Assembly: GCA_021613535.1 (NCBI GenBank)
Contig: CP075492.1
Span: forward strand, 15,438,001-15,502,000
From: Adineta vaga
Lineage: Eukaryota > Animalia > Rotifera
Direction: 5' to 3'
Length of the DNA stretch: 64,000 nucleotides
Both the position numbers and the translations under genes were made by a program. Positions 15,388-58,506 of this stretch are shown here, piece by piece; within the stretch, counting starts at the first letter, position 1; every line of letters begins with the position of its first letter. The notes under the pieces were generated by a model. That model was not told where the DNA came from and did not search any database. It was given only the letters and a program-made list of their open reading frames with translations.

Positions 15388-17358
15388 ATGAATCGATTGT
15401 ATACTCGTGTTCAAGGTCTTGAATCGTCTGGACAATGTATTGTCAGTCTTGATTTAACTCAACAAGATTTTCAATCAAACCCTCGATTATCGTATTACGC
15501 CAAACATCAATTTATTGATGTCGATGATTTTATCGATTTTATTTCTACATTTAATCAACAAATAATTATGATTATTTCTGATTTAATAGCTGATATTACT
15601 TGCAATCTTCTTCGTCCAATGTTTCCACAAATTATTCGACTAATTATCGTTGGAAAACGAACATTTCCATATGAAAATGTCGAATATTTTCCCGATGTTC
15701 AATCATTAGTTAATCATCTCTCATTTAATATACGTGATCGACGTCGTCTCTACATAACATTTGATTCGTGGCCTATTGAACGAACATCATATGATCTTAA
15801 TAAACACACGACCAAATATCTTTGGTATAGTTATTTTTATTACATTCTTTCACGTTTAAAACATACAAATATAGCTCGAGAAGAAATGTTAACAAGTGTC
15901 AAAGCTTTTTACACGAAACAAACTGAAATCGTTCAAAGATCATGCATGGAATTTGAACAATCGTATAATTCCAGTGAGATTATTAAATGGTATACACGAG
16001 AATCATTTTTCTATCTTCTATTAAATCGAACATTACGATCCGAAGATATTAATCACATCTTTGCTATGCGTTATGTTATCGCTGATTTGGAAAATTATAT
16101 ACACAAAAATCGAGATAAAAATCATTCGATTACCACTGTCTATCGTGGTCAACAGATGCATTTAGTTGAAATACAAGAAATTGAAACAAATATTGGTGGT
16201 CTTCTTGGTTTAACAGCATTTTGGTCGACTACGTTTACGAAACAAACAGCTTTTGATTTTACTGTCATTTGGCCACCACATCGAACAGATGTCGTTGAAA
16301 AAGTTCTATTTTCTATTGATATTCCTTATCGTGTTCAGGGTATTTATGCCGATTTGTCACAATATAGTTGTATCAATCACGAGCTCGAAGTTTTATTTTC
16401 GTTTCGTTCAATGTTTCGTATTGAACGAGTAAAGCGACCTGCAAATGATAAATTCTGGTTTATTGATTTGACTTTAATTGATGAAAATGATGAACAATTT
16501 GTATCTATTATGAATCCATGGTATTCATCAACAAAGGAAATTCTTGATCATCGATCTTTCTTTACAGTACGAAATGAAACACCGAATAAGAATTTTTTTC
16601 GCCATTTAACACTAGAAAATGGATCATTTTTAGCTTTTCAGTTATTAATCGATATGATGTTACGATTAGATCAAAATGATTTTGCTCGTCAGGAACTTCT
16701 CGAAGTTTGTCGTGAATTTTATGCTGACAATGAAATAGAATTGAAGAAGATTGATCATTTTGCTCGAACCTATGATCCTCAAGATGCAATTAAATGGTAT
16801 ACAACTAATTGTTTTCTTTATCGATTAATGAATTCTTCGTTAAGAATTGAAAGTGTTGATCGAATTTTTAAATTACGTTACTTTATACATGATCTTCATA
16901 ATCAACTTGCTCAAATACAAATGGAATTTCTTCGTCTTTTACCATCAAATCAGAAAATTTTAAAACTTTATCGTGGTTTAAGAATGGAATCACATGCGTT
17001 ACATGAATTGCAACGTCATCAAAACGATCTTGTTTCAACAAATACATTTCTTTCTACAACACATGATTATGAAGCTGCCCTTTCATTTTCTGGCGATGGA
17101 AATGTTGAAGAAAATGATGTGTCAGTTATTTATCTTATCACTATCGATACAACAGTTGAGCATTCGACACCATTTGCTAAAATTGATTACCATAGTATTT
17201 TCAAAGATGAAGATGAAATTTTGTTTTCGATAGGTGCAGTTTTTCGTGTTGGTGAAACGAAACAATTAAGAGATCGTTTATGGACAGTTGATTTAACATT
17301 AACATCAACAGAAGATAAACAATGGAAAGATTTGACATCGCATTTACATTCGAACTAA
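15388..17358 (+). CDS. Protein with two tandem helical + ADP-ribosyltransferase (R-S-E class) modules and no TPRs
   Basis: Module 1: WYT, VYRGQ, FWSTT, HELEVLF. Module 2: WYT, LYRGL, FLSTT, DEDEILF. Single exon, with AATAAA downstream. Confidence 0.8.
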   Translation: MNRLYTRVQGLESSGQCIVSLDLTQQDFQSNPRLSYYAKHQFIDVDDFIDFISTFNQQIIMIISDLIADITCNLLRPMFPQIIRLIIVGKRTFPYENVEYFPDVQSLVNHLSFNIRDRRRLYITFDSWPIERTSYDLNKHTTKYLWYSYFYYILSRLKHTNIAREEMLTSVKAFYTKQTEIVQRSCMEFEQSYNSSEIIKWYTRESFFYLLLNRTLRSEDINHIFAMRYVIADLENYIHKNRDKNHSITTVYRGQQMHLVEIQEIETNIGGLLGLTAFWSTTFTKQTAFDFTVIWPPHRTDVVEKVLFSIDIPYRVQGIYADLSQYSCINHELEVLFSFRSMFRIERVKRPANDKFWFIDLTLIDENDEQFVSIMNPWYSSTKEILDHRSFFTVRNETPNKNFFRHLTLENGSFLAFQLLIDMMLRLDQNDFARQELLEVCREFYADNEIELKKIDHFARTYDPQDAIKWYTTNCFLYRLMNSSLRIESVDRIFKLRYFIHDLHNQLAQIQMEFLRLLPSNQKILKLYRGLRMESHALHELQRHQNDLVSTNTFLSTTHDYEAALSFSGDGNVEENDVSVIYLITIDTTVEHSTPFAKIDYHSIFKDEDEILFSIGAVFRVGETKQLRDRLWTVDLTLTSTEDKQWKDLTSHLHSN

Positions 17359-18205
17359 ATCATCATTTATAGAGTGCTATAGATTTCTATTTCATTAATA
17401 TAAATAAATATTTGTTTTCGGTTGATTAGAGAATGTTACTTTCATTTATACTTCTTTTTGCTTTTGTTGAGTCAACCGATGATTGTTTATGTATATGATA
17501 CCATCATCATTTAGTGATGATTTTGATTGAACAGCAATTATTTTTATTGGACGTGTAACTTCGACAAGTGTGACATCATCAAATTCTCATTTATGGCTTA
17601 TCAAAGTTAGTAAGCAAATAAATTTAATTTTAGTATCGAAAATAATTTCGTATTACTCAGTGTTTAAAAGTTTCTCGAAAACTTGCTGACAACATCATGT
17701 AATTGAAATATAAATATTGTATGAGATTGATTATTTAGTGATTTTTTGTATCTGATATAAAGCATGAATTGTTCTTTTTTTTTACTCAGTAGGTTTAAAC
17801 GATGTTTTTCATCTAATTGACAAACGATGGGTGTGATATCACTCACGTTTATTTTGTGTGCGTGTGTGTGTGTAAATTTTTATGTGTCGATAGCAGCCTT
17901 TCGGAGATAGGAAGAACATGCTACATTTCTTTGATAAAAAATTATTTGTCATGATTTACCTTTGCATGTACTAATATCATGAACAAAAACAATATACACA
18001 TCGTTTTAATGATTTCCGACGATTAAGATAAGTCACAACTTTGTCATCGTCTCGATCAGAAGCTAGACGTGGATATGATTTTTTCTCTAATTATAAAAAA
18101 ATTATTCATTTCCGCTCAAGGGCGTTGTCACTGTGCTAGTTTTTCCTAGGAAGAAGTAAAGCATATAAATACGTACACTTCAAAGTAATGTTTACATACT
18201 AATCG

Positions 18206-19678
18206 ATGAATCAAATTACAATGTTATTTGTGATCATTGCAGCGATTAGTCTTACTCTTTCAAATGGTGCTGTTGTTCGTAAGGTCGTTTTACAGCCACA
18301 GATCGATGATCTTCTTTCCCAATTACAATCGACACCAATGGATGCAATTCTTTATTGGAATTTGGTTACACTTCAAAGCTGTGCTAACGACTACGACCCT
18401 TCTGTCGCTGTTGTTCCCGATCAACCAGGACCAACGGCCACATCACGTGCTTTTGCTATTATTCACGGCGCTATGTACGATGCTATGGCGACTTTTAATT
18501 TGGCTTATAAATTGTTGTCCAAACCAGGTAATATGCCTACTACAAATGATGTTACAAAGGAATTAGCTACTGATGCAGCGATCATGCAAGCTGCTTATCG
18601 AACGCTGTATGAAATGTATCCGAAACAACGACCAATCTTCGATGCTATTCGTACTGAATATCTAAAACTGTTGAAAACTGATGGAGCCAAAAAAAATGGA
18701 ATTAACAAAGGTATTCTCGTCGGTGATTTGATTGCGTCATTTATTTTGACCAATCGACAACAGGATGGTAGTCAAGTTTCCGGTTCCTATACGCCAAAAA
18801 TGGTTTCAGGCTATCATCAAGTAGATCCAACTCATCCGACGCAAGGCTTCTTAGGAGTCAATTGGGGTAATGTTAAACCATTTCTATTAAATAGTGCATC
18901 ACAATATTTACCATCGAATATTGTTGGTTCAACACGAACATCTCGTCTCGTTTATCTCAATTCGACTAAATATGTTACTGATTTTAGTGAAGTTAAATCT
19001 CTTGGATCAAAATCCAGTAGTATTCGAACAAAAGAACAGACTGAAATCGGTATTACATGGGCTTATGATGGAGCACCAAAGATAGGTGTTCCACCACGTC
19101 TTTACAATCAAGTTGTACGAGTTATTGCCAAACAAAAGAATAATACTGTATCAGAAAATGCACGATTATTTGCATTAGTAAATTATGCACTGGCTGATGC
19201 TGGAATTGCCTGTTGGCAAGCCAAGTATTATTATGAATTATGGCGACCTATTGTCGGTATTCGTCTAGCATCTGGTATGCGTACAATTGCTGATCCATCT
19301 TGGTTACCATTGGGAGCGCCATCCGACAATTCCGGTACTGATTTTACTCCTGGATTTCCATCATATGTTTCTGGTCATTCGACGTTTGGTTCTGCATGTT
19401 TTGAAACACTTCGTCAATTTTATCAAACAGATAATATCAAGTTCAAATTTCAATCGGATGAATACAATGGCAAAACGATTGACTCAAATACAGGACAAAT
19501 ACGACCAGCTAAAACTCGTAAATATCAATCTTTTACAGAAGCTGAAACAGAAAATTTTCTTAGCCGTATATATCTTGGTGTTCATTGGCGAATCGATCAG
19601 GAAGAAGGACAAATATTAGGACGAAAAGTAGCACAATTCGGATTTAGCAAAATGAGTTTAACAAAGCTCATTAATTAA
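18206..19678 (+). CDS. Secreted vanadium-dependent haloperoxidase (chloroperoxidase-like, PAP2 superfamily), probably horizontally acquired
   Basis: N-terminal signal peptide. Vanadate-binding motifs KYYYELWRP, PSYVSGH and SRIYLGVHW. WAYDG..IGVPPRLYNQ resembles fungal and bacterial vanadium chloroperoxidases. Intronless. Confidence 0.88.
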   Translation: MNQITMLFVIIAAISLTLSNGAVVRKVVLQPQIDDLLSQLQSTPMDAILYWNLVTLQSCANDYDPSVAVVPDQPGPTATSRAFAIIHGAMYDAMATFNLAYKLLSKPGNMPTTNDVTKELATDAAIMQAAYRTLYEMYPKQRPIFDAIRTEYLKLLKTDGAKKNGINKGILVGDLIASFILTNRQQDGSQVSGSYTPKMVSGYHQVDPTHPTQGFLGVNWGNVKPFLLNSASQYLPSNIVGSTRTSRLVYLNSTKYVTDFSEVKSLGSKSSSIRTKEQTEIGITWAYDGAPKIGVPPRLYNQVVRVIAKQKNNTVSENARLFALVNYALADAGIACWQAKYYYELWRPIVGIRLASGMRTIADPSWLPLGAPSDNSGTDFTPGFPSYVSGHSTFGSACFETLRQFYQTDNIKFKFQSDEYNGKTIDSNTGQIRPAKTRKYQSFTEAETENFLSRIYLGVHWRIDQEEGQILGRKVAQFGFSKMSLTKLIN

Positions 19679-39262: not shown

Positions 39263-40243
39263 TCAACGTATTACTGTTTGATGTCTTCTTGAAACGCTAT
39301 GATCGACATTTATATGACGAATTTTTTGATAATTTGTAAGAATTAATTGTTTCCAATCTTCACGAAATGATGCTGATGAAATGTAATATGTATAGAATGG
39401 TGCTGCACTAAAAATAAATATCATCAAAAATGTTGCATTTAATGCAAAATATTCAATTTGAAGAAGTTGTACACTTTTATTTGGTAGAATAAATTGAGTA
39501 ATCATTCTTTCAAGATACATTATTGTCATTGGACTAGTTGTTATTATATAAATAATTACTTCACTCATAACAAGAATTAATAAATCTCGATCTCGTCGTT
39601 TTAAACAATTATTTCTTTGATTTAATTCTAGACCTGTTGATTGAATACGATTACGCAATTGTTTCATATTTTTATAAGTTAAATAAGCAAATACACATAT
39701 TATAATCGATGGAACTAATCCAATAAATATGACAGCATAAAAACCATAAAATGTACCATAATTGCCCGACGTCGCACATTGACCATTGTTCATATTTAAC
39801 CATATAAGCGTATGACTAGCAGCAATTGTCCAAAAAAGAAAAATAAAGAAAGTGAAATATTTTGCTCGTTTCAATGTGCTAAATGCTCTAAATGAAGTAC
39901 GACTACTTGTGATCATATAACGATCGATACATGCAAATATTAGAAGAGTTTTTGTAACTTGTCCAAGAAATGATGGAATAAACATTGAAAGTCGACATAA
40001 AATCAATGAACGCATTGTATCATCAGTATAAGAATATGAATAAATTCGAAATAAACCACTAATTGTTAAATAAAGAATATTTGTTACAGCTGAATTCATT
40101 AAATAAATTGAACAAGCATTGCGCTTTTGTCGATAAAAAATTATAAGTGTGAAAATATTACCAATATTTCCAACGACGAGAACAATTGGATAAACATAAA
40201 AATTCATTTGAATTTGGATCAGTGGTAATATTGATGTTGACAT
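39263..40243 (-). CDS. Rhodopsin-like GPCR (peptide-receptor-like), intronless
   Basis: GNIGN in TM1, CSIYL, ACIDRY, PFYTY..SASFR; seven TM segments. Confidence 0.82.
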   Translation of the reverse strand: MSTSILPLIQIQMNFYVYPIVLVVGNIGNIFTLIIFYRQKRNACSIYLMNSAVTNILYLTISGLFRIYSYSYTDDTMRSLILCRLSMFIPSFLGQVTKTLLIFACIDRYMITSSRTSFRAFSTLKRAKYFTFFIFLFWTIAASHTLIWLNMNNGQCATSGNYGTFYGFYAVIFIGLVPSIIICVFAYLTYKNMKQLRNRIQSTGLELNQRNNCLKRRDRDLLILVMSEVIIYIITTSPMTIMYLERMITQFILPNKSVQLLQIEYFALNATFLMIFIFSAAPFYTYYISSASFREDWKQLILTNYQKIRHINVDHSVSRRHQTVIR

Positions 40244-41160
40244 TGTTATTAATGATTAGAATTATGAAAGATAAAACTTTGTATTAGGCTTAAAAAAGAA
40301 TGAAGAAATGTAAGTTATACGAAGCAGGGCATATTTTCGAAAGGAACTCATTTATCAACAGGGATCATTAAAATTATCGAACCCCATGGATGTTAGCATA
40401 TTCATACAGAAAATCCTTATCTTATTTCACGAACAAAAGATAATAATCAGTCAATAGCAGGAGGACGTGTGATTACAAAATTATCATCTACCAGCCTAGC
40501 ATCTTAATCCCGTTTCATGGATAGTTAAAGCAAAAAATTGAAATATACAAAAGATGACAATAACATAATTAAAGATTCCCTTGATCTAAAATATATTTCT
40601 CGTTTTTCTACACGTGACCAGCCACTGGTTTCTGAAACTTTGCTATGATACGGGATACATTCTATCTATTCTCCTGAATCTAAGTTATCACTTGTAAATA
40701 TTTGATCTTAATTCTCATCATTATGAGATGTTCATTGATTAACGATCAGGGAAACGGAAATACGATACAAGGCTAATCGACAGTATTTCTGTAGATGCAC
40801 ACTCTCCAGCCATCAGCTGATCATTATCAAATATGAGTCTTTAGTAACAATCAAGTTTCCTTATTTCACCTGAAACTTTAATTAAAATGACGTGAAATTA
40901 ATTATCAACTGATAAGAATAAAGAAACATTTAAAATACTCTCCGAATCGTCCATATATAGGAAATTTCCGCAAATGACTCAATCAAACGTTATAGTCATG
41001 ATTTTCTACCTGTAAACATGCTTTGATTTTTATAACATCGAGCGTCGAAAATTTTTTGTATCATAACAGAACGTAAAAAAAAACTTCCTCCATTTTTGTC
41101 TCTTTCTGTTGACAACAACCTGTGCATGTTGGAGTCTTTTTTTTCTCCACCTTAAAAAAC

Positions 41161-44100
41161 ATGGCCAAACGACCTGATGAAAATAATTTGATTTATATTT
41201 GGCTTGATGATGAAAGAATTCGCTCGAAAGAATATCTCAATGTTCAACAAGAATTTCCAACACTTTTTAAATCTTTTCAAACATTCAACAATTCCGATGA
41301 GTGTATAGATTTCATTACTGATCTTTTCGATACAAAAATCATCTTAATTACTTCAAATATCTTAGGAAAACTTATTATTCCATTGATTCATTCATGTAAA
41401 CAAATTCATTCGATTTATTTATTTCATTCGAATATTCAATCTGATCAGATTTGGATAAAAACCTATCCGAAAATTTTACAAATATTCGACGATATCAAAC
41501 TAATTTGTAATCGATTTCAAGAAATTCGAAATGAATATAGAAACGATCCAATTGCATTGACATTTCTTTCCTCGTCAGATGTTACTGCAACCGATCGAAA
41601 TCGACAAGATCCATCGTTTATGTATTTTCAATTATTAAAAGATATTATTCTTAATGATCTATCGGATGAAAAGGAAGAAGAAACGAAATCAGATATGATT
41701 AATTATTGTCGAAGTATTTTTGCGAAAAGTCCAATAGTATTGGATATAATAAATGAATTTGAAAAAGATTATCGTCCTGATTCATCGATTTATTGGTATA
41801 CGAGAGAATGTTTTCTTTTTAAAATGTTAAATAAAGCCTTGTGGACACCCGAACCTGATGTTATATATCGATTAAGATACTTTCTTCGACATCTTCATGG
41901 ACAAATTTCCATTTATGCTCAATCACAACGTGATCATCTATCGAAAATGATTGTGTACCGTGGACAATCGATGTCAACAAATGAAATTGAAAAATTAAAG
42001 AAAAATATTGGTGGATTTCTTTCATTTAATAACTTTTTATCAACATCACTTCAACGTGATATTGCTATGAAATTTCTCTGGGGATCAGAAATCGGTGTTC
42101 TATTCGAAATTCATATTGATCCATCGATTGAAAAGTTTCCCTATGCAAATATTGAACAATTATCTAATCATCAAGGAATTCTCGGTGAACGTGAACTTCT
42201 CTTTTCCATGGGAACAGTCTTTCGTATTGTTGAAATTTTGAAAGAAAATGACTTTTATCATGTTCAATTAATTCTTAGTGATGAAGTTGATCAACAATTA
42301 GAATCTTATACAACAGTTACTCGTGAAGATACTCGTTCTTCACATTCATTTTTATCACTTTTGAAATTAATGAATGAATTAGGACAATTAAATCGAATTG
42401 ATCAATTTGCACAGATGCTTCAAGATCAAGTTTTATTGAATCTTCATCCATCAATGCTTGCATCTATACATCATGCATTTGGAATGATTTATCATTCTCG
42501 ATCACAGTCAAATGAAGCTTTAGATCATTTTCATCAAAGTTTAAGTATTTATTTGAATATTTTACCTAATAATCATCCAAAATTATCACCAACTTATAAT
42601 AATATGGGTTCAGTTTATTTATCTCAATTAAATTACGAAAAAGCTTTAGAATTTCATCAATTAGCTTTAGATTGCCAATATAATTCATTGAATCCAAATC
42701 AAGCATCAATTATTGCTTATATCAATAATATTGGATCAATTTATTATCGACAAGAAAATTATCAAGAAGCATTATATCATCATAAACATGCTTTAGACTT
42801 ACAAAAACAGTTTTTTGGTGAACGTAATCCAGAATTGACGAATACTTACAATATAATTCGAGCAATTTGTTTAAAACTAGGTGATTATGAACAAGCAAGT
42901 TAGTTTCATAAGCGACTTTCTTCTCTTCGACGAATATTTTCTCTTTGTTTCTTTTTTATTGCATAGGTTTTTATCATGATAAAACTCTTGAATTACAAAC
43001 TATTGCATCTCAATTAGATCCAACAGCATTAGCAAATTGTTCAATAACAACCGGTGCTGCTTGTCTTTCACATGATCAATATGATGATGCATTAATTCAT
43101 TTTAAACATGCATTAGAAATTGAACAACAATATTTCTTACCAAATAATCCATCATTAGCAAAAACATATAATTGTATAGCAAGTACTTTATATAAAAAAC
43201 GTCAATTCAAAGAAGCTTTATCTTATTATACTAAAGCATTAGAAATAGAATTAACTTCTCTTTCAAATCCTCACCCATCGATTGCAACGAGTTATCATAA
43301 TATTTCAACAGCATATGCTGGCTTAATAGAATGGCCGAATGCATTAGAATATTCAACCAAAGCTATTGATCAATTAAAAAAATGTTTGGAAGTAGATCAA
43401 ACTACTTTAGCATTATTTATTCATCATACAGGATATATTTATCTTCAACAAGAAATATATGACAAAGCATTGAATTATTTTCAACATGCACTCGATATTC
43501 AACAACAATATTTATTATCGAATGATTTATCTTTAGCTACAACAAATAATCATATTGCAAGAAGTTATTTCAAACAAAATCGATTTGAAGAATCTCTTCC
43601 GTACTATCTCAAAGCATTAGAAATTGAACAGAATTCTTTACCAAATAATCATCCTTCGATCGCCACTAGTTATCATAATATTTCAACAGCATATGTTGGA
43701 CTTGAACGATGGTCCGATGCTGAGAAATATGCATTGAAATCTGTTGAACAATTGAAAAGTTCATCTGATGCTGATCAAACAACATTAGCAGCATTTATTC
43801 ATTATGTTGGATATATTTATCATCAACAAAATCAAAATGAACAAGCGTTAATATATTATGAACAAGCAGTTGATCTTTATCGTCTATATTCATTCGAAGA
43901 TGATCCATTCTTAGCTGTGATTTATCATCGAACTGCTAGTGTTTATTATCAATTGAAAAGATATGATGAGGCACTTGTTTTGTATCAAAAAACCTTAAAT
44001 ATTGAATTAAAAACATTACCTGATAATACACAAACTATTGCTACAACATATTCGAATCTTTCAACTGCATATTTAGGTTTGAAACGATACGATGAAGCAT

Positions 44101-44252
44101 TATTTGCAGCTGAATTAGCGATAGATCAATTACGAAAAACTTTACCAAGTAATCATTCAGAACTTGTTCGATATCAAACTTATCTCATGGCTATTGAAAT
44201 GAGTAAATCATCGAACATAGATATTACACAATTTTTTTCTATTTCTCATTGA
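41161..44252 (+). CDS. Receiver-like domain + ADP-ribosyltransferase + long TPR array, paralog A
   Basis: Two exons joined by phase-1 intron 42899-42966. YRGQ, FLSTS and ERELLF motifs. About 42-aa TPR repeats (HPSIATSYHNI). Confidence 0.88.
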
Positions 44253-44717
44253 TTATTTGAAATATATTATCAATGAAATTATATATATATATATAGTACA
44301 TTAAGTGAATAGTAATAAAGATTTTGTATCGTATAAAATTTCAACATTCAACTGAACTATGAATACTATGCCTTTAATCGTATGATATATTTACTCACTA
44401 TATATTGTGAAATTTGCTAGATTAAATAACACTTTGGAATTGGAACAATATCAAGCGATGTTTATCACATTTAGAACTTGGTTTTACTGATTAAACAAAA
44501 GATTGAATAATTAAATGTTTTGTTCTATTCTGTTCTTCCGTCGTGAGTTTTCTTTTTTCTGTCATCTCTACCTATAGTCATGTGGTATGACTAAAGTCAA
44601 TAAAAATATTCTTAAGAAGAAAAGAAGAAAGGTGTATATGCTGTTTAATGTAATGTAGGCATTCTCCAACAACGAAATTATTCTTTTTTTCCAAGCCAGT
44701 ATTGATATAACGCGTAA

Positions 44718-47396
44718 ATGTTACCAAAAACGAATGATACACAATTAATATGTGTTTGGCTTGATAATCAATTACTTCGATCGGAAGAATATCTTAATGC
44801 TCAAGAAGAACTTCAAACTCTTTTCGAAACATTTCAATCTTTTAATAATTCCGATGATTGTACAGATTTTATTACTGAATATTCAGATATCAAAATAGTA
44901 TTGATAATTTCAAATGTTCTCGGGAAACTTATTATACCATTGATTCATTCATGTAAACAAATTCAATCGATTTATATATTTTATTCGAATAAATCAATTA
45001 GTGATGATTGGACAAATGATTTTTGTAAAATCAAAGGAATATTCAATGATTTTCAATTACTTTGTGAAGAATTTAAACCTCATACTATCGAATCCGAGGA
45101 AAATCTAACTGGTATTTCTTTTCTTTCATGTTCAGATGATATCAATCGACAAGATCCATCATTCATGTATTTTCAATTATTAAAAGATATTATTTTCAAT
45201 GATACATTGGAAGAATCAGAAGAAGAAACGAAATTAAATATGATTAATTATTGTCAAAAAGCGTGTGCTGATAGTCAAATTTCTTTGAAAATCTTAGATG
45301 ATTTTCGAAAATCATTTATTCCTGAACTTTCAATTCTTTGGTATACAAAAGAATGTTTTCTTTTTAAAATGTTAAATAAAGCCTTGTGGACACCCGAACC
45401 TGATGTTATATATCGATTAAGATACTTTCTTCGACATCTTCATGGGCAAATTTCCATTTATGCTCAATCACAACGTGATCATCTATCAAAAATGATTGTG
45501 TACCGTGGACAATCGATGTCAACAAATGAAATTGAAAAATTAAAGAAAAATATTGGTGGATTTCTTTCATTTAATAACTTTTTATCAACATCATTTAATC
45601 GACGTGTAGCTGAAACATTTTTATTCGGATGTCCAAGTGGAGTTTTATTTGAAATGGAAATTGATCCAACAATACAAAAATTTCCATTTGTTAATACAAA
45701 AGAATTAACTTATTTAGGAGATTCGGATTTCGAACAAGAACTTCTCTTTTCTATTGGTAGTGTGTTTCGAATTTTAAAAATCGAAAAACAAAATCATTTC
45801 TATCGAGTTCGATTAAAACTTAGTGATGATGTGGATGAACGATTAGCGAATTATGCAATGATTACACGAGAAGAAACTCGTACAACACATTCGTTTTTAT
45901 CACTTTTAAAATTAATGGATGAATTAGGACAATATGGAAGTGTTGATCGTTTCGCTCAAATGCTTGAAGATGATATTGGAATATCTTTAAATCTAAATTT
46001 ACGTGGTTCTATTCTTCATATGTTTGGTATAATTTATTTGAAACGAGGTCAATATAAAGATTCTCTGGATTATTTTGATAGATCATTGAATGTTTATTTG
46101 ACTTTTCTATCAGCTGATAGCGCAAAGTTATCACCAACGTATGCTTGTATTGGTTCTGTTCATTCTCGTCAATCAAATTATGATAAAGCGTTGACTTTTT
46201 TTCAATTAGCTTTAGATTGTCAAACAAATTCAGTTGAACCAAATATATCATCGCTTATTTATTATACACAAAATATTGCTCATACTTACAGTTCCATTGG
46301 AAAGAATAATGAAGCTTTAGATTATTATAAACGTGTTTTACAATTGCAAAAACAATATTTAGGTGACAATGATCCATCTATAGCAACAACATGTAGCTCA
46401 ATAAGTACACTTTGTTTGCGACAAGGTGATTTCATGGATGCTCGTTCGTTTCATCACTGCCATTTGACTTGATTAGTTTTTGAATAATTCTTTTCTATTT
46501 CAGTGACGTATATGATGCAATCTGGTTCATCGAGATCCAACGATCATAGTGCCAGTTTAGATCCAAATGCTGCAGCTGATTCTTCTATACAATCGGGTAA
46601 TCATGCTCTGTCAAAGGAAAACTATGAAGAAGCATTGAAACATTTCCAGCATGCCTTAGAACTTCAACATCAATTTCTTCTACCAAATCATCCATCGTTA
46701 TCCGAAACTAATCATCGAATTGCTAAAGTATATTACAAACAAAATCGATTTGAAGAATCTCTTCCTTTTTATCTGAAAACATTAGAAATTGAACAAAATT
46801 CATTAGCAAATGAGCATCCATCGATTGCAACTACTTATCGTAATATTTCGAAAGTTTATGCCGGCTTAAAACGTTGGTCTGACGCAGAGAAATATGCATT
46901 TAAAGCTGTTGAACAATTGAGAAAATCATCTGAACCAGATCAAAATACATTAGCTTGGCTTATTTTTCATGTTGGATCAATTTATCATCAACAACATCAA
47001 TATGAAAAAGCACTCATACATTATGAAGAAGCTCTACAACTTCATCGTCTTTATTCACCTGATGATGATGCTTCATTAGCGGGTGCTTACCATCGAACTG
47101 GTGATGCGTATTATCAATTAAATAGATATGAAACTGCTCTTGTTCATTTTCAAAAAACATTGGATATTGAATCTAAAACTTTATCAGATAATGCACAAAC
47201 CATTGCACATACTTATTCATCTTTAGCTGCTACTTATCTTCATTTAAGACAGTACGAAGATGCATTAGTAGCAGCTGATCAAGCAATTCATCAACTACGT
47301 AAAACTCTACCAGAGAATCATCCCGAAGTTGTTAAACTTCGAGATAAATCCGACGCTATTAAACAGAGACAGCAAAGCGATCGATTTATTTATTGA
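44718..47396 (+). CDS. Receiver-like domain + ADP-ribosyltransferase + TPR array, paralog B
   Basis: Phase-1 intron 46444-46503. YRGQ, FLSTS and EQELLF motifs. TPR repeats. Confidence 0.88.
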
Positions 47397-47690
47397 AAAA
47401 ATTTCATAATGTGACATTGTTCATAAATAAATAGATTATCAAATATTATTTCGCTTTTGTTGAAATCAAATTCAGATTAGACAGAATGATTTGAATTGTT
47501 GATTTTACTTTAAATATAAAGAAGATGACGTGTAAGTTTATGTTCTTTTCTTTTCTTTTTGTCACAGAACATTGTTTTCTCTCGTTCTTTCATCGGAAGA
47601 ACAAAAGAAAAGTCAACGTACGTTTTATCTTGGTTTTTTCCGTCTGAAAACAAACCTCAGTCTTCATCAGTCTCTTTTTCATTACAGAAA

Positions 47691-50354
47691 ATGATTGATA
47701 AACAATTAACATGTGTTTGGTTTGATAATCAATTACTTCGTTCAGAAGAATATCTCAATACTCAAGAAGAAATTCAAACTCTGTTCGAATGCTTTCAATC
47801 GTTTAATAACTCGCAGCAATGTATGGAATTTCTTACAAATCGAACGGAAAGAAGTATACTTCTTATTACTTCAAATACTTTGGCTAAAAATCTATTACCA
47901 ACTATTCATTCTTTCGATCATATCGATTCTATTTACATATTTTCAGTAAAGAAATCCTCCGATGAACAATGGATCAAAGCATATTCCAAAATTCAAGGAA
48001 TTGTTCATGATATTAAATTGATTCCTGAACAAATTCAACGAAATAGAAATAAAAATCAACAAGATCCAATTGCACTATCATTTGTATCATCAACAGATCT
48101 CATCTCTCAAGATCAAAATCGACAAGATCCATCGTTTATGTATTTTCAATTATTAAAAGAAATCTTTTTGCATGATTATCAATTAGAATCTGAAGAACAA
48201 ACGAAATCAGATATGATAAATTATTGTCGAGAAGTTCATGTTGATAATCCAACTGAAATTGTTATCTTAGATGAATTTGAAAAAGATTTTATTCCTGAAC
48301 TTTCAATCTATTGGTATACAAGAGAATGTTTTCTTCATCGAATGTTAAATAAAGCTTTATGGAAATTAGAACTCGATGTTTTGTATAAATTAAGATATTT
48401 TCTTCGATATCTTCATCAACAGATTATATCCGAAGCAGCAGTTCAACGTAAAAATCTATCGAAAATGATTGTTTATCGTGGACAGACGATATCCGCGGAT
48501 CAAATCGAAAAATTAAAGAAAAATCGCGGTGGATTTCTTTCATTTAATAACTTTCTATCCACATCACTTCAACGTGATATTGCTTTAAATTTTATCTTTG
48601 GATCTAAACTTGCTGTTCTATTTGAAATGCATATCGATCCATCTGTACAGAATATTCCCATTATTAATATTGAACAAATTGCTTATTTACAAAAAGAAAC
48701 ATGTGAACATGAATTACTAATTTCAATGGGTAGTGTCTTTCGTATTGTTAATATTGATCAAGAAAATGATTATTATCGTGTTCAATTAACATTGAGTGAA
48801 AATCTTGATGAACAATTAGCAGCATATACAGATGTAACTCGAGAAAAAATTCAATCACCTCATTCGTTCTTATCATTGGTAAAATTAATGCATACTGTAT
48901 CAGAATATTCTTATCTTGATCGATTTGCTCAAATTCTTCATGATGATATATCATTAAATAGTAATTTCCTAATATCTGGTGCTCTTTATCATTTATTTGG
49001 TTTAATTTATTTAAATCGAGGACAAAATAAAGACTCTTTAAAACATTCAGAAAAAGCCTTGGAAATTAATTTAACTTTTCGTCCTGCAAATCATCATACA
49101 TTAACACCAACTTATAATAATATTGGTTGTGTATATTTAGCACAATCAAATTATGAAAAAGCTTTAGAATATCAACAATTAGCTTTAGATTGTGAATTAA
49201 ATTCCAAACAACCGAATGCTTCATCCATTATTCTTTATACAAATAATATTGGCAAGATTTATAGTCAACAAGGAAAATATGATGAAGCAATTGCATGTCA
49301 TCAACGTGCGTTAGAACTACAACAACAACATTTAGGTGAAAATGATTCATCACTTGCAGAAACTTACAGATTGATTAGTGCAACGTATTACAATCAAAAA
49401 GATTTCGAACAAGCTAGTAAGTAAATCATCATGATTTCCTTTCTTAATCTTCTTTTCTATCTATTAGATTTATATCATCAAAAAGCTATTGCATTAGAAG
49501 AAACAACATTAAAATTAGATCCGAAATCTGCATCTGATCATTCGATAAAACTTGGTTTGAAATGTCATTCAAAAAAACAATATCAAGAAGCATTAACCCA
49601 TTTTCAACATGCCCTCAATATTCAACAACAATATTTTCTATCGAATCATCCATCTTTAGCTACAACAAATAATCACATTGCTCGAGCTTATTACAAACAA
49701 AATCGATTTGAAGAATCTCTTCCGTACTATCTCAAAGCATTAGAAATTGAACAGAATTCTTTACCAAATAATCATCCTTCGATCGCCACTAGTTATCATA
49801 ATATTTCAACAGCATATGTTGGACTTGAACGATGGTCTGAAGCGGAAGAATATTCTTATAAAGCTGTTGAACAATTAAGAAAAACGATTCAAACAGATGT
49901 AAATACATTTGCATCATTTGTTCATCATCTTGGATATATTTATGATGAACAAGAAAAATATGAACTAGCAATAATTTCATATCAAGAAGCACTTGAATTA
50001 TATGAAACACATTTATCATCTGATGATCCATCATTATTTGTTGTTTATCATCGAACTGCAAGAACTTATTATCGTTTACGTATGTATACTGAAGCCTTGA
50101 TTCTTTATGAGAAAACGTTAAATATTGCTTCGAAATATTTACGTGATCACGATAAACAAGTTGCAACAATTTATTATGATCTTTCTTTAACTTATGCGAA
50201 ATTGAAACAATTCGATGAAGCTTTCATTGCTGGTGAACAAGCCATTGAACAATTACAAAAGACTTTACCTAATAATCATCCTGATATTGGTCAATATCGA
50301 GTTCATTTAGACTTCATTAAACAACAACAAATACTTGCAAAACAAAATCAATAA
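47691..50354 (+). CDS. Receiver-like domain + ADP-ribosyltransferase + TPR array, paralog C
   Basis: ATG 47691, phase-1 intron 49417-49467. YRGQ, FLSTS and EHELLI motifs. TPR repeats. Confidence 0.88.
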
Positions 50355-50635
50355 TATGATTCATTTATATGAAAAAAAAGCCATTTCTCTATTTTATTTT
50401 CTACAAGGATGAACAGGAAAGGAAGAATAAATGTAAATGAAAACTATTCATGCATAGCATCACGTTGTCCTCTCATTGCCTATATAATTTGGTTTTGATT
50501 TCTTTTTTCTCTTCATCAAATAAAATAATGATTCCCAACATTATTGTTAGTGAGTCAATTGAAACAGACGATGATATTCCTCAACCAATTATTAAATCAT
50601 CAAAAGGGTTGAGTCAACTTTTCTATTGAAAAAAC

Positions 50636-52008
50636 ATGTACAGTATGATTTCTTTTAGGAAAACAGCACAGATCGTATGTTTCACATTGATTGTTATTAT
50701 GAACTTGAGTTCGTGGATTGATCTATATGGTGTATTTACGGAATTACCATTAATCATTCCATTAACACCAGAAGGATGGACGTTACCATCTGTTATGTCC
50801 ATATGTGTCACTGTAGCAAATATAATGCCAGCACTAGTGATATTTTTACGTTGGTATCAAGGAAAACGATTTTCAGAAATTCCTTATATTTATATAATTA
50901 TAATTATTGGAATACTTGCATCACTAATATTTGCATTATTTTGGAAAGAAACGATTTATTTATTTGGTCGCCAACGAAGTATTTGGATAATTGGATGTGT
51001 GTTTGCATTATCAATGCTTGATAATACATCATCACTTGTTTTTTTTGATTATATGAAACGATTTCGTAGTCACTATTTAAGTGCAGCTTTTCTTGGCGAA
51101 GGTTTGACAGGTGCCATTCCAACATTGTTATTGTTATTACAAGGAATTGGTGGTGAAGCTATTTGTGTAAAAACGAATAATGGTACTTTTGATAAACCTA
51201 CGTTTACTGAACCACGATTTAGTGTTACTGTATTTATGTTTATTATTACATGTATTATTCTGGCATCTTTAATTGCATTTCTCATTCTTCGATGGACAAA
51301 TATCATTTCATTAGCTGATGCTGCAGAACCAGTAGGATATTTTTGATTTCTTATTTTATTTCAATGAGATATTTATAGGTAAAAGAACAAGATAATACGG
51401 GGGAAAGTGTTCCAATGATTGTTATAAATGATTCGATTCAATTATCAACACCAACATCCACGTCAATGGAACAAATAACAGAAAAATCATTTTTTCTTCT
51501 TCTTTTTATTAATACTTTTAATTCATTGATATTATTTGGTATTCTACCACCGTTAGTTACCTATATAGTTTTACCCTATGGACAAAAAGCACTTTATTAT
51601 TCAAGTTTTCTTGGTACATTAGGATACTCATTAGTCTTGTTATTGAATGTAAAACGACCATATCTATCAATGCATCAGACTATTCTCGGCTCAATATGTG
51701 GATGTATTCTTGCTTCATTTTTGATTATAATTGCTGTTCAAAGTCCATGTCCATGGTGGGCCGATACTGTACATGGTGCTTTCATTACAGTATTTATTCA
51801 TTTTATATCGACAATGTTCATTGCTTATATACGAATAACTATTGGAAATCGAATTAAAGATCATTGGTCAAATGAAAAAGGTCTTTTCTATTTTGGTATT
51901 ACTATTCAATTAGGTTCAGTCATCGGTACTATTCCAATATTTCTATTGGTCAACGTTTTTGAAGTATTTGTTGCACGAGAACCGTGTCAAACTTATTGTA
52001 TTAAATAA
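50636..52008 (+). CDS. Riboflavin transporter (SLC52A family)
   Basis: SSWIDLYGVFTELP..PEGWTLPS, TSSLVFFDYM, FLGEGL, PRFSVTVF, SPCP, G..IQLGS..G..P.F.LVN. Intron at about 51332-51378. Confidence 0.88.
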
Positions 52009-52876: not shown

Positions 52877-54293
52877 TTTTTTGTTTGTAAAATAATTAGT
52901 ATGTCTTCTCTATTCTATGTGAATAAACAAATAGTAATTCATTCTCTTTAAACTTATTAAATTTAAATTAGTAGAATTATGACTTTCATCTACAAAACAA
53001 AAGATAATGTGTTCATGATAAACAGAAAACAGTTTATCTTCGGAATAAAATTGACTAATTAATTATATATAAACTAAAAAACTTTAATCTTAACTTTTCT
53101 TTCTTATTGCCTAACAAAAATATTATTGAATAAATTGACTATTTATGATTTTTTATATACTCAGTTCCATATCAATTCAATCATATATATATATATATAA
53201 CTGAAATATTTGTTCTAGACCGATATCTCGTGGAAGAGATGATCATCATACGAGCATCTCAATGAATCGGTACACAGTTGTAGAAAAATAAATATAGGCA
53301 CGCAGAACTAAAAGGGTCTGCACAGGACAGTATCTTAATTCTCTTTTAGAATAATGATACAATTTGATTATTTTAGTAGTTGTCTTTTTAATCAAATGAA
53401 GGAAGTATTTGGAAACTAAGGTGATCAGTGCGAATATATGGATTTTTTTCTATTCAAATTGATCTTTAAATCATCGTTCAACAGAAAAATCTGAGGCGGT
53501 CTAGGTTCTGACAACCATAGTGTTCGATATGAATATTATTCTACTTTTTTGTTTTATTGTGAACTTGACGTATTCATCTCGAAACTTTCTTGTGTCAGTT
53601 AAGAAATTGCATGAGTAACCATTGCTAAAGAATAACATTAACAGAAGATGATGAAGTTTATTTCTAGTGTTTTTAACTATGTTTCCTGAGATATTGTTTG
53701 TATTTTTAATTAAATGAGCAATAATCTTACAATATTTTTTACTTTTTATGTAGAATCTATGTCGAAAAATAATTCGATTTGATTTTCTTATTTCGTATTG
53801 TTTTGAAATTCTGTTAGAAACAATAATAATAGAAAAGAAGACCATTTTTTCTCGGCTTATCGCGCGTTGATTTTATAAGCAAAATACAAATGAGTTGGTG
53901 ACGTCAAAATACTCCGTTTTTTTGTCTACTCAAAAGAAATACTTATATCTAATTACTTTTTAAACACTGCGAAAATTTCTAGGTTCTTTTCATCATATAT
54001 AAATATAGTTTACATTTGTTAGCAAAATATTACAATCTCTTCGGTAAGTAAAACGCTTTTTTTGTATTGAAGCTAGATATAAGATTCTCTGAACGCATAG
54101 AAGAGATCATTTGCAATTGTAAAATATCTAGTTGATGTTTTTTTTTTACATAAAACTAATTCCATAATTTTATTTTCATAAATAATAACAACTCGAGCTA
54201 TAATGCTACATCTAATTTAGATATAATCTCAACATTTGGAATAGTTTAATTGAAAATTTTCTTTTCGATCTTCTCACTTTGGTTGTTTACAAA

Positions 54294-57200
54294 ATGGTGG
54301 TAATGGAACGTTTACGATTACTATTCAATGTTGTTTGTATTAAAATCGCTTTACTCAATCTTTTTAATACAAAATTAATAGATGAAAGAATAGTTCGTCA
54401 TGAAATATATTCAACTCGATTATTTATCATTCTTTTCTCAATATCAGTTGTTATTATTACTCTTTATACTTCACTTAGCATTCATGTTAAGACAGAAACT
54501 CTAACAATGCCAACAAAAATTCAATATGAACAATTATTTGTACAATATTCAGATAGTTTACAATGTCCATGTACACAAATATCAATTTTTTATAATGAAT
54601 TTACTCGTATTACATCATCGTTTCATCAAGTTTGTTCAAGTGAATTTGTGTCTCAACAATGGATTGATTTTGTTTTTGCAACTAATTTAACATTTATCTG
54701 GACAATGGATGTACGAACAAGTATGAGTGCAATGTGGCAATTAATTTCTGCTCTTTGTCAATATGCAAATACGACATTTAGTGATACGATTGATACATTT
54801 TCTAATACATCATTTATAAGTCCAATGTTAATTTCAGAAAATCTCTTACGAACACAAATGCAAGCATCCATTGATTTAACACGTCAAACAGCATCAGACA
54901 ATATTCGTCGATCATTTACAGCTGTTCATGAAATTACACAAGCAAGTGGACTTTTAACTGGTGTATCAACTAATTTTATCGTTCCATTATTATCCTCTGG
55001 ATGGAATTCTTCATCATACACATTATTATTTTCTCAACAAAGTCGATATATTCAATCAGGATCAACAACAATTTGCTATTGTCAAAGTGATAGATCATGT
55101 CCAAATCCTGGTAATCTTTACCTATATAAATCCTAGGAAACATATGGTTTATTTAATTTAACTCAATTAATTGCTAATATAACATTACCTGGTCTTGTTG
55201 TTGATTGTTTACCGATTAAAATGACACTTTCTTCATCATTAGAATGCTTTTATAATCAAACATGTTTGAACATTCTTATATCAGCCTATTCACGAAATAT
55301 TAATATTTCAATACTTGATAAAGCATTCTCAAGTCGTTTTACATCACAAACAAAAGTTGAACAATTGGTCGGTGAACTTTTCATTGAAGAAGTTACTCAT
55401 GAAGTTACATTTAAATCCTATTATGATCGATGTAAACCATCGTATTGTACTTATACTGTAGCACGTCGATTTGATGTATTATTCGTTATTACCAGTATAA
55501 TAGGTTTAGTCGGTGGACTTAATGTAGCATTACGTTTACTTAGTCCATATGTGATTGATTTTATATTACGTTTTAAACAGAAATCAATAATACAAATAAA
55601 ACAAACCGAAAGTAAGACGACATACAGCGTACGAAACAATAGTCACTGTACTGAGGAAAAATCGAATTTCTCGAGTACGTCTTAGATAAGAAGTAAAAAA
55701 GTATAGATCCTAGAATCGATTTTCAATAGAAGTCAGGCGAAAACAAATTAGTCCATACTCTCACCTTCATTTAGAATTATATTTATTTTTTAGCTTTAAC
55801 AATAAAAATTCATCTTCAAAATTTAATCAATAAAATAAAACTCTCAATTATCGAAGTAAATGTTTTCAACAGTCATTCACAAGATCTTAATCGAACAAAT
55901 CAAGAACGTAGTTCAACACGATTTTATATCATTCTTATAATTATTTCAATCAGCATTCTCATTTTCTCTACATTATTATCCGTTCAAACAATAAGTAAAA
56001 CTATGGAATTTCCTTCGCAAAGTCAATATGAACTCTTTACAAAAACTTTATCCAAATACACTTAAATGTCCATGCACTGATATTAAAATTCTTTATGCAG
56101 ATCTGTTTCAAATAATTCCTCATTATCATCAATTATGTACGAGTGATTTTATTCAATCATGGTGGTATAAAACTCTGAATATTGTATCAAATATAGGTTT
56201 AGATACTCTATTTGATTTTCGTATTGTTGCATCATCTTATTTTCAAATGTTGTCAATATTTTGTGATTTAGCAAATTTAACATTTATTCATGCTAATCGT
56301 CGTTTTTCTTCGACAGTTTATATTAATAATCAGATATTACCACGAAATCTCTTTCATTCACAAGCAAATGCATTAATAAATACATTTTTAAATTCCATAC
56401 CTGTTGAATTTCAATATACACTATCAATGATTAACACAATACTTCAGTCAAATCAATATCTAACTAGTACACAAACAAATGCATTACTTTATACACTAGA
56501 TTTTTCTTTATATGGAATATCTTCAACCAATCCATTACAAATTATACCATATAGTATGGCTTTTCGTCTAGAAGATAATACAACTTGTACTTGTGCTCGA
56601 CATTCATCATGTAGAAGTCCCTATAGGTATGGTGGAAATTGGACAGCTCTTGGATTATATGGCGGATGTTTTGTGATGGATATGATACTCAAATCATCTC
56701 TTGCATGTTGGTATAATCAAACTTGTTCAACAGGTTTAAGACGATATTTTCTTTCGGCTAATGTAAATATTTCAAATAATGTTACAATACTTGATTCAAC
56801 GTTAACGAGCAGATTTTTACCAACGACTTCTTTTGAAGTTATTCTTCAAGAAATTCTCGTTGAACAATGGAATACATCAAGTTCATATGAAACCTTTTAT
56901 CAGAAATGTCGTCCTACATATTGTAAATATACATATCAAGAAAGAAGTAGTGTTGTCTATATGGTGACCACGATTATTGCATTATTTGGTGGTCTTAATG
57001 TTATTCTACGATTGATTAGTCCATTCGTGGCGAATACTTTTTCTACGTTTACTAATAAATTTCGAAAGAATCCTCAAGTATCTACGAATATTTATCAAAT
57101 AACGGCTGATAATCGTAAGTAGAGAGATTGATCACGTCTTTATTCTGTTAAACTATTTTTGAGAAACGCGAATATAATGAAGTTATCTCATTGTCAAACT

Positions 57201-58506
57201 GCGATTTACTTTAGAAGAACATCCAATAAATACTCGTCAAGATTCATTTTCAACTCAAATTCGAGAAAAATTTGTTAAATTTAATTTATTTAACAGTGAT
57301 TCAACTGAAATGAATATTATTCAACATGAACGATCATCTACACGATTATATTTATTGCTTCTTTTAAGTATTATATTGATACAGGTTATTTCTAATATTA
57401 TTTTAAAAGAAACCGTTAATAAGACAGTTTTAACACCAACACAAACTCAATATGAGGAATTATATACATTGTATAGTAACACACTTCAATGTCCATGTGC
57501 TGATATATCTTTACCATATAAAGGATTTCTGGAAATCGATATAGATTTTCATCAAATATGTACAAGTGATTTTGTTGGTGATGTTTGGATGAATTATCTA
57601 TTTGGTCAAGGATTTTGGGGTTTTCAAATAAAGCCTGATCTTCGTGGACGTGGAGCTGCATATTTCGGATTAATATCATCATTATGTAAACTTTCAAAAA
57701 CAACAATTAATAATGCTGTTGATAAATTTCTCGATGAAATTTTAGTCAATGATCAAATGATACCAGAAAAAGAATTTTCATCAAGAATGAATCTTTTTAT
57801 CAATCGATTTCAAACCAATACACCATATAAATTTTCATGTTCATTACAACTTCTACGAGATATTACTCACGGAAATACGTTCATATCAACTTATGTATTA
57901 AATTGGGAATATGTTGTTAAAGATAATAGAAGTAATGCAACAGTATCTACAGTTGCTGTATCACCTAATAATTTATGTTCATGTGGTAAACAAAGTAACT
58001 GCATTGCACCTGGTGGTATCTATCAGATGTTTACCAATAGACTTTTAGTTCCTCTGTTAGGATTTAATGTTGGATGTTCAGTAGTTGAAACAGTATTTCG
58101 ATCAACATTACAGATTTTATATAATCAAACAACTATTGATCAAATACAACAATATGGAACAGACAATGCAATATATTTTCCTGCAACAAAATATATAAGA
58201 GCTATGAATTCAACATATCCAAGTCGTTTTCGATTAAATTCAAGTATTATCGATATTATTGATCAACTATTTGTTGAACAATGGAAAATCAATATTTCAT
58301 ATGCATCATTTTATCAACAATGTGCTCCAATGTATTGTTCATATACATTTGATGAACGGCATGATGCTATTTATATATTTACACGACTTTTAGCTATATA
58401 CGGTGGTTTGACAGCTGTTTTACGATTAATAACTCCTTACATAATCAATATTATCTTCTCAGTTACAAATCGCTGTCGCAATAATCGAATTGTAATTGAC
58501 ACATAA
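54294..58506 (+). pseudogene. Three-exon gene encoding three tandem two-TM Cys-rich modules, disrupted by TAG 55134-55136 and a +1 frameshift near 56033
   Basis: Phase-1 introns 55612-55793 and 57115-57214 keep the frame. Each module has STR(L/F)(F/Y)-TM1, LxCPC, HQxCxSxF..W, CxC..C, (G/D)C, YNQT, CxPxYCxY and TM2 with GGL. Confidence 0.78.

Follow-up and report, generated by a model that had tools for sequence, protein, structure and literature searches.

A tandem array of three candidate cytosolic receptor-enzymes combining a pseudo-receiver, an arginine-type ADP-ribosyltransferase and tetratricopeptide repeats in the rotifer Adineta vaga

Introduction

Characterised animal ADP-ribosyltransferases (ARTs) of the ARTC clade are ecto-enzymes. 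The vertebrate members (ART1-5) carry an N-terminal signal and a C-terminal glycosylphosphatidylinositol (GPI) signal. In TPR-type NLRs of fungi, as described in excerpts of PMC4986451, an effector lies upstream and 42-residue tetratricopeptide repeats (TPRs) resembling those of kinesin light chain (KLC) lie downstream, and NLR/STAND proteins possess a central NB-ARC or NACHT NTPase. Bacterial effector/TPR/GreAB/PIN conflict systems combine an enzymatic effector with TPRs and have no NTPase (PMC8195603, in excerpt). Here we analyzed a 64,000-nt stretch of Adineta vaga contig CP075492.1 (positions 15,438,001 to 15,502,000; hereafter the window), which contains three tandem genes, g1, g2 and g3, each encoding a receiver-like domain, an ARTC domain and a TPR array. 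The order of effector and repeats is that of the fungal proteins, and, as in the bacterial systems, there is no NTPase; unlike the vertebrate ecto-enzymes, g1-g3 showed neither terminal signal by hydropathy. We propose that g1-g3 encode cytosolic, one-chain immune receptor-enzymes that would capture a foreign protein and ADP-ribosylate it, a predicted function to which we assign a probability of about 0.4.

Results

The original prediction described three head-to-tail paralogs with a common intron position and architecture. This was confirmed, because the spliced frames of g1, g2 and g3 were open, with no internal stops, and their phase-1 GT..AG introns fell at one common alignment position (Table 1). 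From end to end, the g2 and g3 models agreed at every residue (100% identity) with the annotated A. vaga proteins I4U23_015876 and I4U23_015877, respectively. Contigs in which the g2 intron was spliced out were found in three of four RNA-like runs (X1, X2 and X3) and a contig lacking the g3 intron in one of the four (X2); runs X1-X5 were taken as RNA by guess, none of them being on record as RNA. The g1 intron was assigned by homology. The RNA-like contigs did not bridge this intron or the 5' part of g1, which says nothing about silence of the gene, and 302 nt near its 3' end occurred in an RNA-like contig with no differences. We rejected an assembly artefact because the copies were just 51-53% identical to each other and the locus was backed by DNA contigs. 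Pseudogene status of g1-g3 was likewise rejected.

Judging from predicted fold and motifs, g1-g3 are enzymes of the ARTC clade with an intact predicted active site. In the structure predicted for residues 1-385 of g3 (pLDDT 85), residues ~157-370 matched 6drh with Z 13.6 (root-mean-square deviation 2.7, 164 residues aligned), and HopU1, Vis and rat ART2.2 were also among the ARTC matches (Z 11.7-13.6, identity 15-21%). Foldseek concurred (6drh, E 3e-8), and a TPR-poor profile of the family matched Vis (E 9e-11). Of the three proteins, g3 alone passed the PF01129 cut-off; searching the PDB with the ART region as a single sequence returned nothing useful. The anticipated YRG, FLSTS and ERE/EQE/EHE motifs were present in all three copies. 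Further, R-S-E-x-E was complete in 124 of the 136 scorable segments from 140 new representatives of clusters at 50% identity, and in 41 of 50 metagenome genes. We take the acceptor to be arginine from the ExE rule, and the active site of arginine type proposed earlier is supported. The loop ahead of ExE differed in length and sequence. Between orthologs the ART core was the best-conserved part (80-84%, compared with 66-72% for the TPRs). The helical WYT stretch, previously described as a region of its own, corresponded to the helical lobe with which ARTC enzymes begin, the alignments starting at residue 126 of the g3 model for rat ART2.2, 157 for HopU1 and 168 for 6drh. We therefore assign it to the catalytic domain and reject a separate WYT domain.

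Residues 5-125 of the g3 model formed the five-strand, five-helix receiver fold (4xlt, Z 12.2, root-mean-square deviation 2.6, 117 residues aligned), and many further receivers matched with Z 10-12, in agreement with the receiver-like N-terminal domain that had been proposed. The N-terminal motif quoted for it fits g1; g2 has VWLD and g3 VWFD. The acidic residue that ends strand 1 was retained. The site of the phospho-accepting Asp, where strand 3 ends, was located from the secondary structure of the model and the CheY pattern. This position was Ser in 114 of 139 non-gap rows of the 50%-cluster representatives and in 45 of 50 metagenome genes (Asp in one). The Ser indicates that the domain is a pseudo-receiver, and a classical phosphorelay receiver was rejected. 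A predicted complex of the receiver and catalytic domains scored 0.00 and was used neither way.

The long TPR array expected downstream of the ART domain was found in each protein (13, 10 and 10 units of 42 residues). In the full-length g3 model (pLDDT 86, pTM 0.74), which receiver, ART and helical repeats explained fully, the enzyme passed via helices directly into a continuous TPR solenoid. The repeat type matched the Podospora 42-residue TPR structures 4y6c and 4y6w (E about 1e-18), and OGT and SPINDLY ranked among the top fold matches of the full-length model. Relatives carry only automatic database labels, namely arginine ART, TPR protein and kinesin light chain. The last was rejected, because the N-terminus is a receiver fold and ART, not a coiled coil for heavy-chain binding, and only the repeat type is shared. 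Neither a Walker A motif nor a Pfam NTPase match was found in g1-g3, and hydropathy, the sole measure used, revealed no hydrophobic N- or C-terminus. The top 19-residue windows (1.67 in g1 and 2.16 in g2) corresponded to receiver strand 3/helix 3 in the g3 model, and a hydrophobic stretch preceded the receiver in 3 of 241 Met-starting relatives. These results agree with the cytosolic, NTPase-free architecture first suggested and, by hydropathy and fold only, with the lack of a signal peptide or transmembrane segment.

Sequence comparison places g1-g3 in a very large bdelloid family. Of 5,148 candidate proteins, 1,037 matched their receiver and ART part; among the 120 matches listed, an organism was named for 32, in every case a bdelloid. 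The same part matched 4,559 clusters at 50% identity (820 at E <1e-30). The receiver-helical lobe-ART layout recurred in 133 of the 140 new cluster representatives, and 241 of 261 proteins examined carried 1-16 repeats, many being first-exon fragments. The published Gene Ontology (GO) table, in the portion of the PMC11258130 supplement consulted, assigns the arginine-ART term GO:0003956 to 431 gene models of A. vaga and 366 of A. ricciae, in which both haplotypes may be counted. Since only g3 of the three passes the Pfam ART cut-off, counts of this type miss members.

Pattern-based scans of plasmids, phages and viral contigs, which reach fairly close relatives only, gave no match to the family; a bacterial origin is therefore neither shown nor excluded. 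The sole GTDB match (L081:730-1953) came from a Chitinophaga metagenome-assembled genome, where its contig measures 1,953 nt. It was nested deep within a rotifer-type clade and was rejected as a bacterial member, being probably binning contamination. ESM Atlas rows hint at ciliates (0.76) and bacteria (0.90, 133 features) and are leads only. No system-specific PADLOC profile matched; the generic TPR model PDLC01169 matched three of four proteins. We found no description of the family in the literature searched, whose scope left out most subscription papers (including ART-evolution reviews), nor in the accessible parts of PMC3482391, PMC3417536, PMC8195603, PMC9503650, PMC4986451, PMC11258130, PMC10809525, PMC12220480 and bioRxiv 10.64898/2026.10.19.760177.

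Several relatives have other layouts. A fourth relative in the window is a single 656-aa open reading frame (ORF) with two tandem helical-lobe and ART units and no TPRs. Proteins of A. steineri, A. ricciae and Rotaria share 74%, 71% and ~60% identity with it, respectively, and its first 130 residues gave no match to the receiver profile. This conserved form could be a partner or executor. The A. vaga proteins P0263 and P0353 have an added N-terminal LIM domain and a C2 family match, respectively; elsewhere among the relatives, P0137 has a weak RING-like tail, and in P0195 the whole unit is doubled. Some of these extra parts may be gene-model fusions. A 180-aa ORF consisting of the receiver domain alone lies close to a family gene at L073:7068+, L074 and L075, and the ESM Atlas holds clusters of short receiver-only rotifer proteins; such receiver-only sequences could be fragments of exons or pseudo-receivers that exist on their own.

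The repeats of a sister clade show a mode of evolution resembling that of fungal NLR sensors, judging from DNA sequences of 50 genes (43 with repeats) obtained from the best 80 of 459 metagenome loci together with L081. Adjacent repeats that were at least 65% alike (124 pairs) differed mainly at positions 13, 16, 35, 3, 17 and 6. We take positions 6, 13, 16 and 17 to be TPR groove positions 2, 9, 12 and 13. In 48 pairs from 19 genes, picked blind to the test positions, the residue differed at 103 of 192 groove codons compared with 186 of 1,621 codons elsewhere, and multi-base residue changes numbered 50/192 and 33/1,621, respectively. The proportion of nonsynonymous differences (pN) in the groove was 1.95 times the background proportion of synonymous differences (pS), with a gene bootstrap 95% confidence interval of 1.46-2.59, and the ratio for outer and core sites was 0.28 (34 pairs, 13 genes, no codon model). 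The number of repeats was 4-14, 5-9 or 6-15 on cores linked at 90% identity, and the three-letter codes of the repeats were recombined; these counts come from ORFs that introns or contig ends may shorten. At least three repeats had an 85% twin in 8 of 38 genes. Asn was retained at repeat positions 9 and 10 in 61 and 65 of 68 units, respectively, and the flanking groove positions were variable. An Asn ladder grips the peptide backbone in the TPRs of KLC, LGN and OGT. According to the part of Dyrka 2014 (PMC4986451) that was available, fungal NLR TPRs show this regime, the sites under selection lying on the concave face, and high-identity repeats of this kind make up only 0.8% of metazoan repeats.

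The subfamily of g1-g3 stood apart from a clade expanded in A. steineri in a tree of 58 rows picked from 263 proteins. In this tree g2 and g3 each paired with an A. ricciae protein (support 100/99+), and g3-like genes were present in Rotaria. Repeats of the window subfamily were orthologous by position. In five pairs with the closest relatives from other species, groove positions 6, 13, 16 and 17 were the least conserved (80/201, 40%), compared with outer helix B (181/317, 57%) and core (343/469, 73%). Two conversion tracts make the copies mosaics. The g1/g2 tract runs from just past WYT to the exact end of FLSTS, with pS of 0.04 compared with 0.35-0.60 in its flanks, and a contig of run X6 at 41900-42048 had approximately double depth and a loose end that continued as g2. 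An internal three-repeat duplication accounts for the three additional repeats of g1. Single-nucleotide polymorphisms at 31 coding sites (12 nonsynonymous), among 40 of 70 listed, were not numerous enough, and too strongly filtered, to test for selection. Thus, the suggestion of variable TPRs as in NLRs is supported at the family level, in the sister clade. For g1-g3 it is supported only in part: they have orthologs across genera and no near-identical shuffling repeats, but show groove-biased divergence and conversion. g1-g3 would then be old receptors of fixed specificity, and the sister clade the fast-recoding part of the repertoire.

The array lies between ordinary animal genes for a rhodopsin-family G protein-coupled receptor (GPCR) and an SLC52 riboflavin transporter, and no mobile-element context was seen around it in the window ORF list. 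Elsewhere in the window, a single-ORF vanadium haloperoxidase-like gene (VCPO_N, DUF6851), likely acquired horizontally, adjoins the double-ART gene, and a single-ORF flavin monooxygenase (FMO-like) is of bacterial or fungal type by appearance. Similar Cys-containing, membrane-protein-like ORFs, at least three of them in tandem, represent another expanded family; three that were scanned gave no Pfam match.

Table 1. Features of the g1-g3 array and other genes, numbered by position in the window
Feature	Position	Strand	Details
g1	41161-44252	+	1007 aa; exons 41161-42898 and 42967-44252; 13 TPRs; pseudo-receiver/ARTC/TPR
g2	44718-47396	+	872 aa; exons 44718-46443 and 46504-47396; 10 TPRs; I4U23_015876
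g3	47691-50354	+	870 aa; exons 47691-49416 and 49468-50354; 10 TPRs; I4U23_015877
g1 intron	42899-42966	+	
g2 intron	46444-46503	+	
g3 intron	49417-49467	+	
g1 pseudo-receiver domain	41188-41544	+	
g2 pseudo-receiver domain	44745-45101	+	
g3 pseudo-receiver domain	47706-48062	+	
g1 ARTC catalytic domain	41608-42288	+	includes helical WYT lobe
g2 ARTC catalytic domain	45153-45833	+	includes helical WYT lobe
g3 ARTC catalytic domain	48126-48806	+	includes helical WYT lobe
g1 motifs		+	YRG 41956, FLSTS 42034, ERE 42187
g2 motifs		+	YRG 45501, FLSTS 45579, EQE 45732
g3 motifs	48474-48716	+	YRG 48474, FLSTS 48552, EHE 48705
g1 TPR array	42457-44162	+	13 units
g2 TPR array	46011-47327	+	10 units
g3 TPR array	48984-50288	+	10 units of 42 residues; intron-split
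g1/g2 conversion tract	g1 41805-42048 = g2 45350-45593	+	244 nt, 2 mismatches, both synonymous
g1/g3 conversion tract	g1 43571-43714 = g3 49694-49837	+	144 nt identical, within TPR array
g1 internal duplication	43074-43829	+	378-nt (three-repeat); copies 72% identical
Rhodopsin-family GPCR gene	39263-40255	-	flanks array
SLC52 riboflavin transporter gene	50630-52008	+	flanks array
Double-ART relative	15388-17358	+	656 aa
Vanadium haloperoxidase-like gene	18203-19678	+	
Flavin monooxygenase	8850-10535	+	
Cys-containing membrane-protein-like ORFs	113-1555 and 54216-58506	+	

Discussion

The repeats are most variable on the predicted binding groove, which suggests that g1-g3 and their relatives are intracellular immune receptors. 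We propose that the TPR groove would bind a stretch of a foreign protein, the conserved Asn pair and its variable neighbors together reading an extended peptide, and that the adjoining enzyme would ADP-ribosylate an arginine of the captured protein and so disable it. The ligands would be non-self, as the fungal NLR-like evolution of the sister clade suggests, and the pseudo-receiver may act as a regulator independent of phosphorylation. More tentatively, and at well below even odds, several hundred such NTPase-free receptor-enzymes, each combining a pseudo-receiver of bacterial type with an arginine ADP-ribosyltransferase, would tag invader proteins directly, with a peptide-reading TPR code rewritten by repeat shuffling and gene conversion.

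Several results weigh against an immune receptor of this kind. g1-g3 have orthologs in A. ricciae and Rotaria, none of their repeat units has a 70% twin, and only 1 of 121 units in the window subfamily has its nearest repeat within its own protein. Between the three paralogs, pN/pS over the whole TPR region was 0.44-0.84, and thus region-wide below 1. In the sister clade, local pS in the groove was also raised (0.164), which gives a local ratio of ~1.2, and single-base changes alone gave a ratio of ~1.0 to background. The four groove positions were chosen post hoc; a prior set that includes positions 9 and 10 gives 113/288. Further, the OGT fold matches span the TPR part only (TM-score by query 0.2-0.3). 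After fungal infection, GO:0003956 was enriched among down-regulated candidates for horizontal gene transfer (HGT) in the PMC11258130 supplement: in A. vaga, 6 of the 26 such genes carried the term at 7 h, and 19 genes carried it at 24 h; in A. ricciae, 8 genes did so at 24 h. The term was absent from the up-regulated tables and from the desiccation HGT-candidate enrichment file of these supplements. These data are for the enzyme class as a whole, in the supplement files searched, which were assigned to Supplementary Data numbers by order. In this study, the one infection RNA-seq found, the down-regulation argues against an induced antifungal effector. The pattern is compatible with constitutive receptors against other microbes, and the authors raise trade-offs for down-regulated genes generally (PMC11258130, in the part consulted).

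The proteins might instead serve, as the original prediction had it, a sensor-gated self-kill or arrest, in which a ligand on the TPRs frees an inhibited transferase that hits essential host proteins or drains NAD. Such a switch would act like an NLR without the NTPase and shut down the invaded cell or animal. We consider this close rival somewhat less likely, although the same evolution of repeats at the family level as in fungal NLR sensors, the match to the Podospora structures, the cytotoxic ARTs among the nearest folds (6drh and Vis) and the high conservation of the ART core all fit it. So does the existence of bacterial NTPase-free TPR-effector conflict systems (excerpts of PMC8195603). 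The oligomerisation module is absent from g1-g3, however, the variable loop before ExE poorly fits one common host target, and TPR-less relatives with intact ART units are kept as ordinary orthologs. Eutelic animals cannot replace killed cells, and a loss of cells would presumably be costly for animals that are eutelic and syncytial. We favor the captured protein as the substrate because there is no oligomerising NTPase, because the enzyme adjoins the solenoid as in OGT, and because of the variable loop and the cost of cell suicide under eutely; the TPRs may thus select what is modified rather than license a toxic domain. Capture of a foreign protein and self-killing, the two immune readings, jointly account for about two thirds of the probability.

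It is unlikely that g1-g3 are endogenous signaling or stress enzymes, whose TPRs would direct reversible ADP-ribosylation of arginine to rotifer substrates during desiccation, recovery or development, the family having grown through ordinary duplication. In favor of such enzymes, g1-g3 belong to an old subfamily with orthologs in A. ricciae, where linkage also seems to be preserved (a contig of 246,889 nt is given for each of P0005, P0035 and P0270), and the down-regulation of arginine-ART genes on infection suits them as well. The parts of PMC10809525 and PMC12220480 consulted describe enrichment of ADP-ribosylation terms in the responses to desiccation and spaceflight, although the authors interpret these terms as poly(ADP-ribose) polymerases (PARPs). 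This explanation leaves the thousands of divergent clusters, the variation in repeat number on near-identical cores and the groove-focused change unaccounted for, and GO:0003956 is missing from the desiccation file. A mostly neutral expansion through duplication, conversion and slippage, with exposed groove residues merely unconstrained, is more improbable still. It would agree with the single-base nonsynonymous rate in the groove, which is close to the background synonymous rate, and repair can leave conversion tracts as by-products. However, catalytic residues are retained in ~90% of divergent members, purifying selection acts on the other exposed positions of the repeats (0.28), and multi-base residue changes are concentrated in groove codons.

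It has long been asked how bdelloids, which have little or no sex, keep up with their pathogens. A large family of receptors whose binding face is diversified through recombination within the genome offers a concrete and testable candidate answer. If the TPR code of such a repertoire is indeed rewritten in this way, largely asexual animals would have a means of generating new immune specificities without sex. The family would further provide an example, from an animal, of sensor-coupled arginine ADP-ribosyltransferases in the cytosol, and would show that repeats can evolve in the manner of NLRs without a STAND NTPase.

Compared with known systems, g1-g3 share the fold, R-S-ExE and the helical N-lobe with the ARTC enzymes (the 6drh toxin/immunity pair, Vis, HopU1 and rat ART2.2), but are neither secreted nor anchored, are fused to a pseudo-receiver and TPRs, and belong to a family with hundreds of copies in an animal. 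Two-component receivers and pseudo-receivers share the fold (Z 10-12) and have an acidic residue where strand 1 ends, whereas the rotifer family has Ser for the phospho-Asp and an ART fusion, in an animal. OGT and SPINDLY likewise join a TPR superhelix and a protein-modifying transferase on one chain; they differ in being single-copy housekeeping proteins with a glycosyltransferase domain and N-terminal TPRs, and are not known to diversify. The bacterial NTPase-free TPR-effector systems have a different constant module. Internal conservation, variation in repeat number and concave-face variability, as in fungal NLRs, characterize only part of the rotifer family, which differs from these NLRs in that it has no STAND NTPase, its effector is an ARTC and g1-g3 have no near-identical repeats; in g1-g3 the central NB-ARC or NACHT NTPase of NLR/STAND proteins is missing. 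Thus, the family is not an ecto-ART, an NLR, a phosphorelay receiver or a kinesin light chain, and by analogy it likely works like the sensor of a fungal TPR-NLR fused directly to its enzyme.

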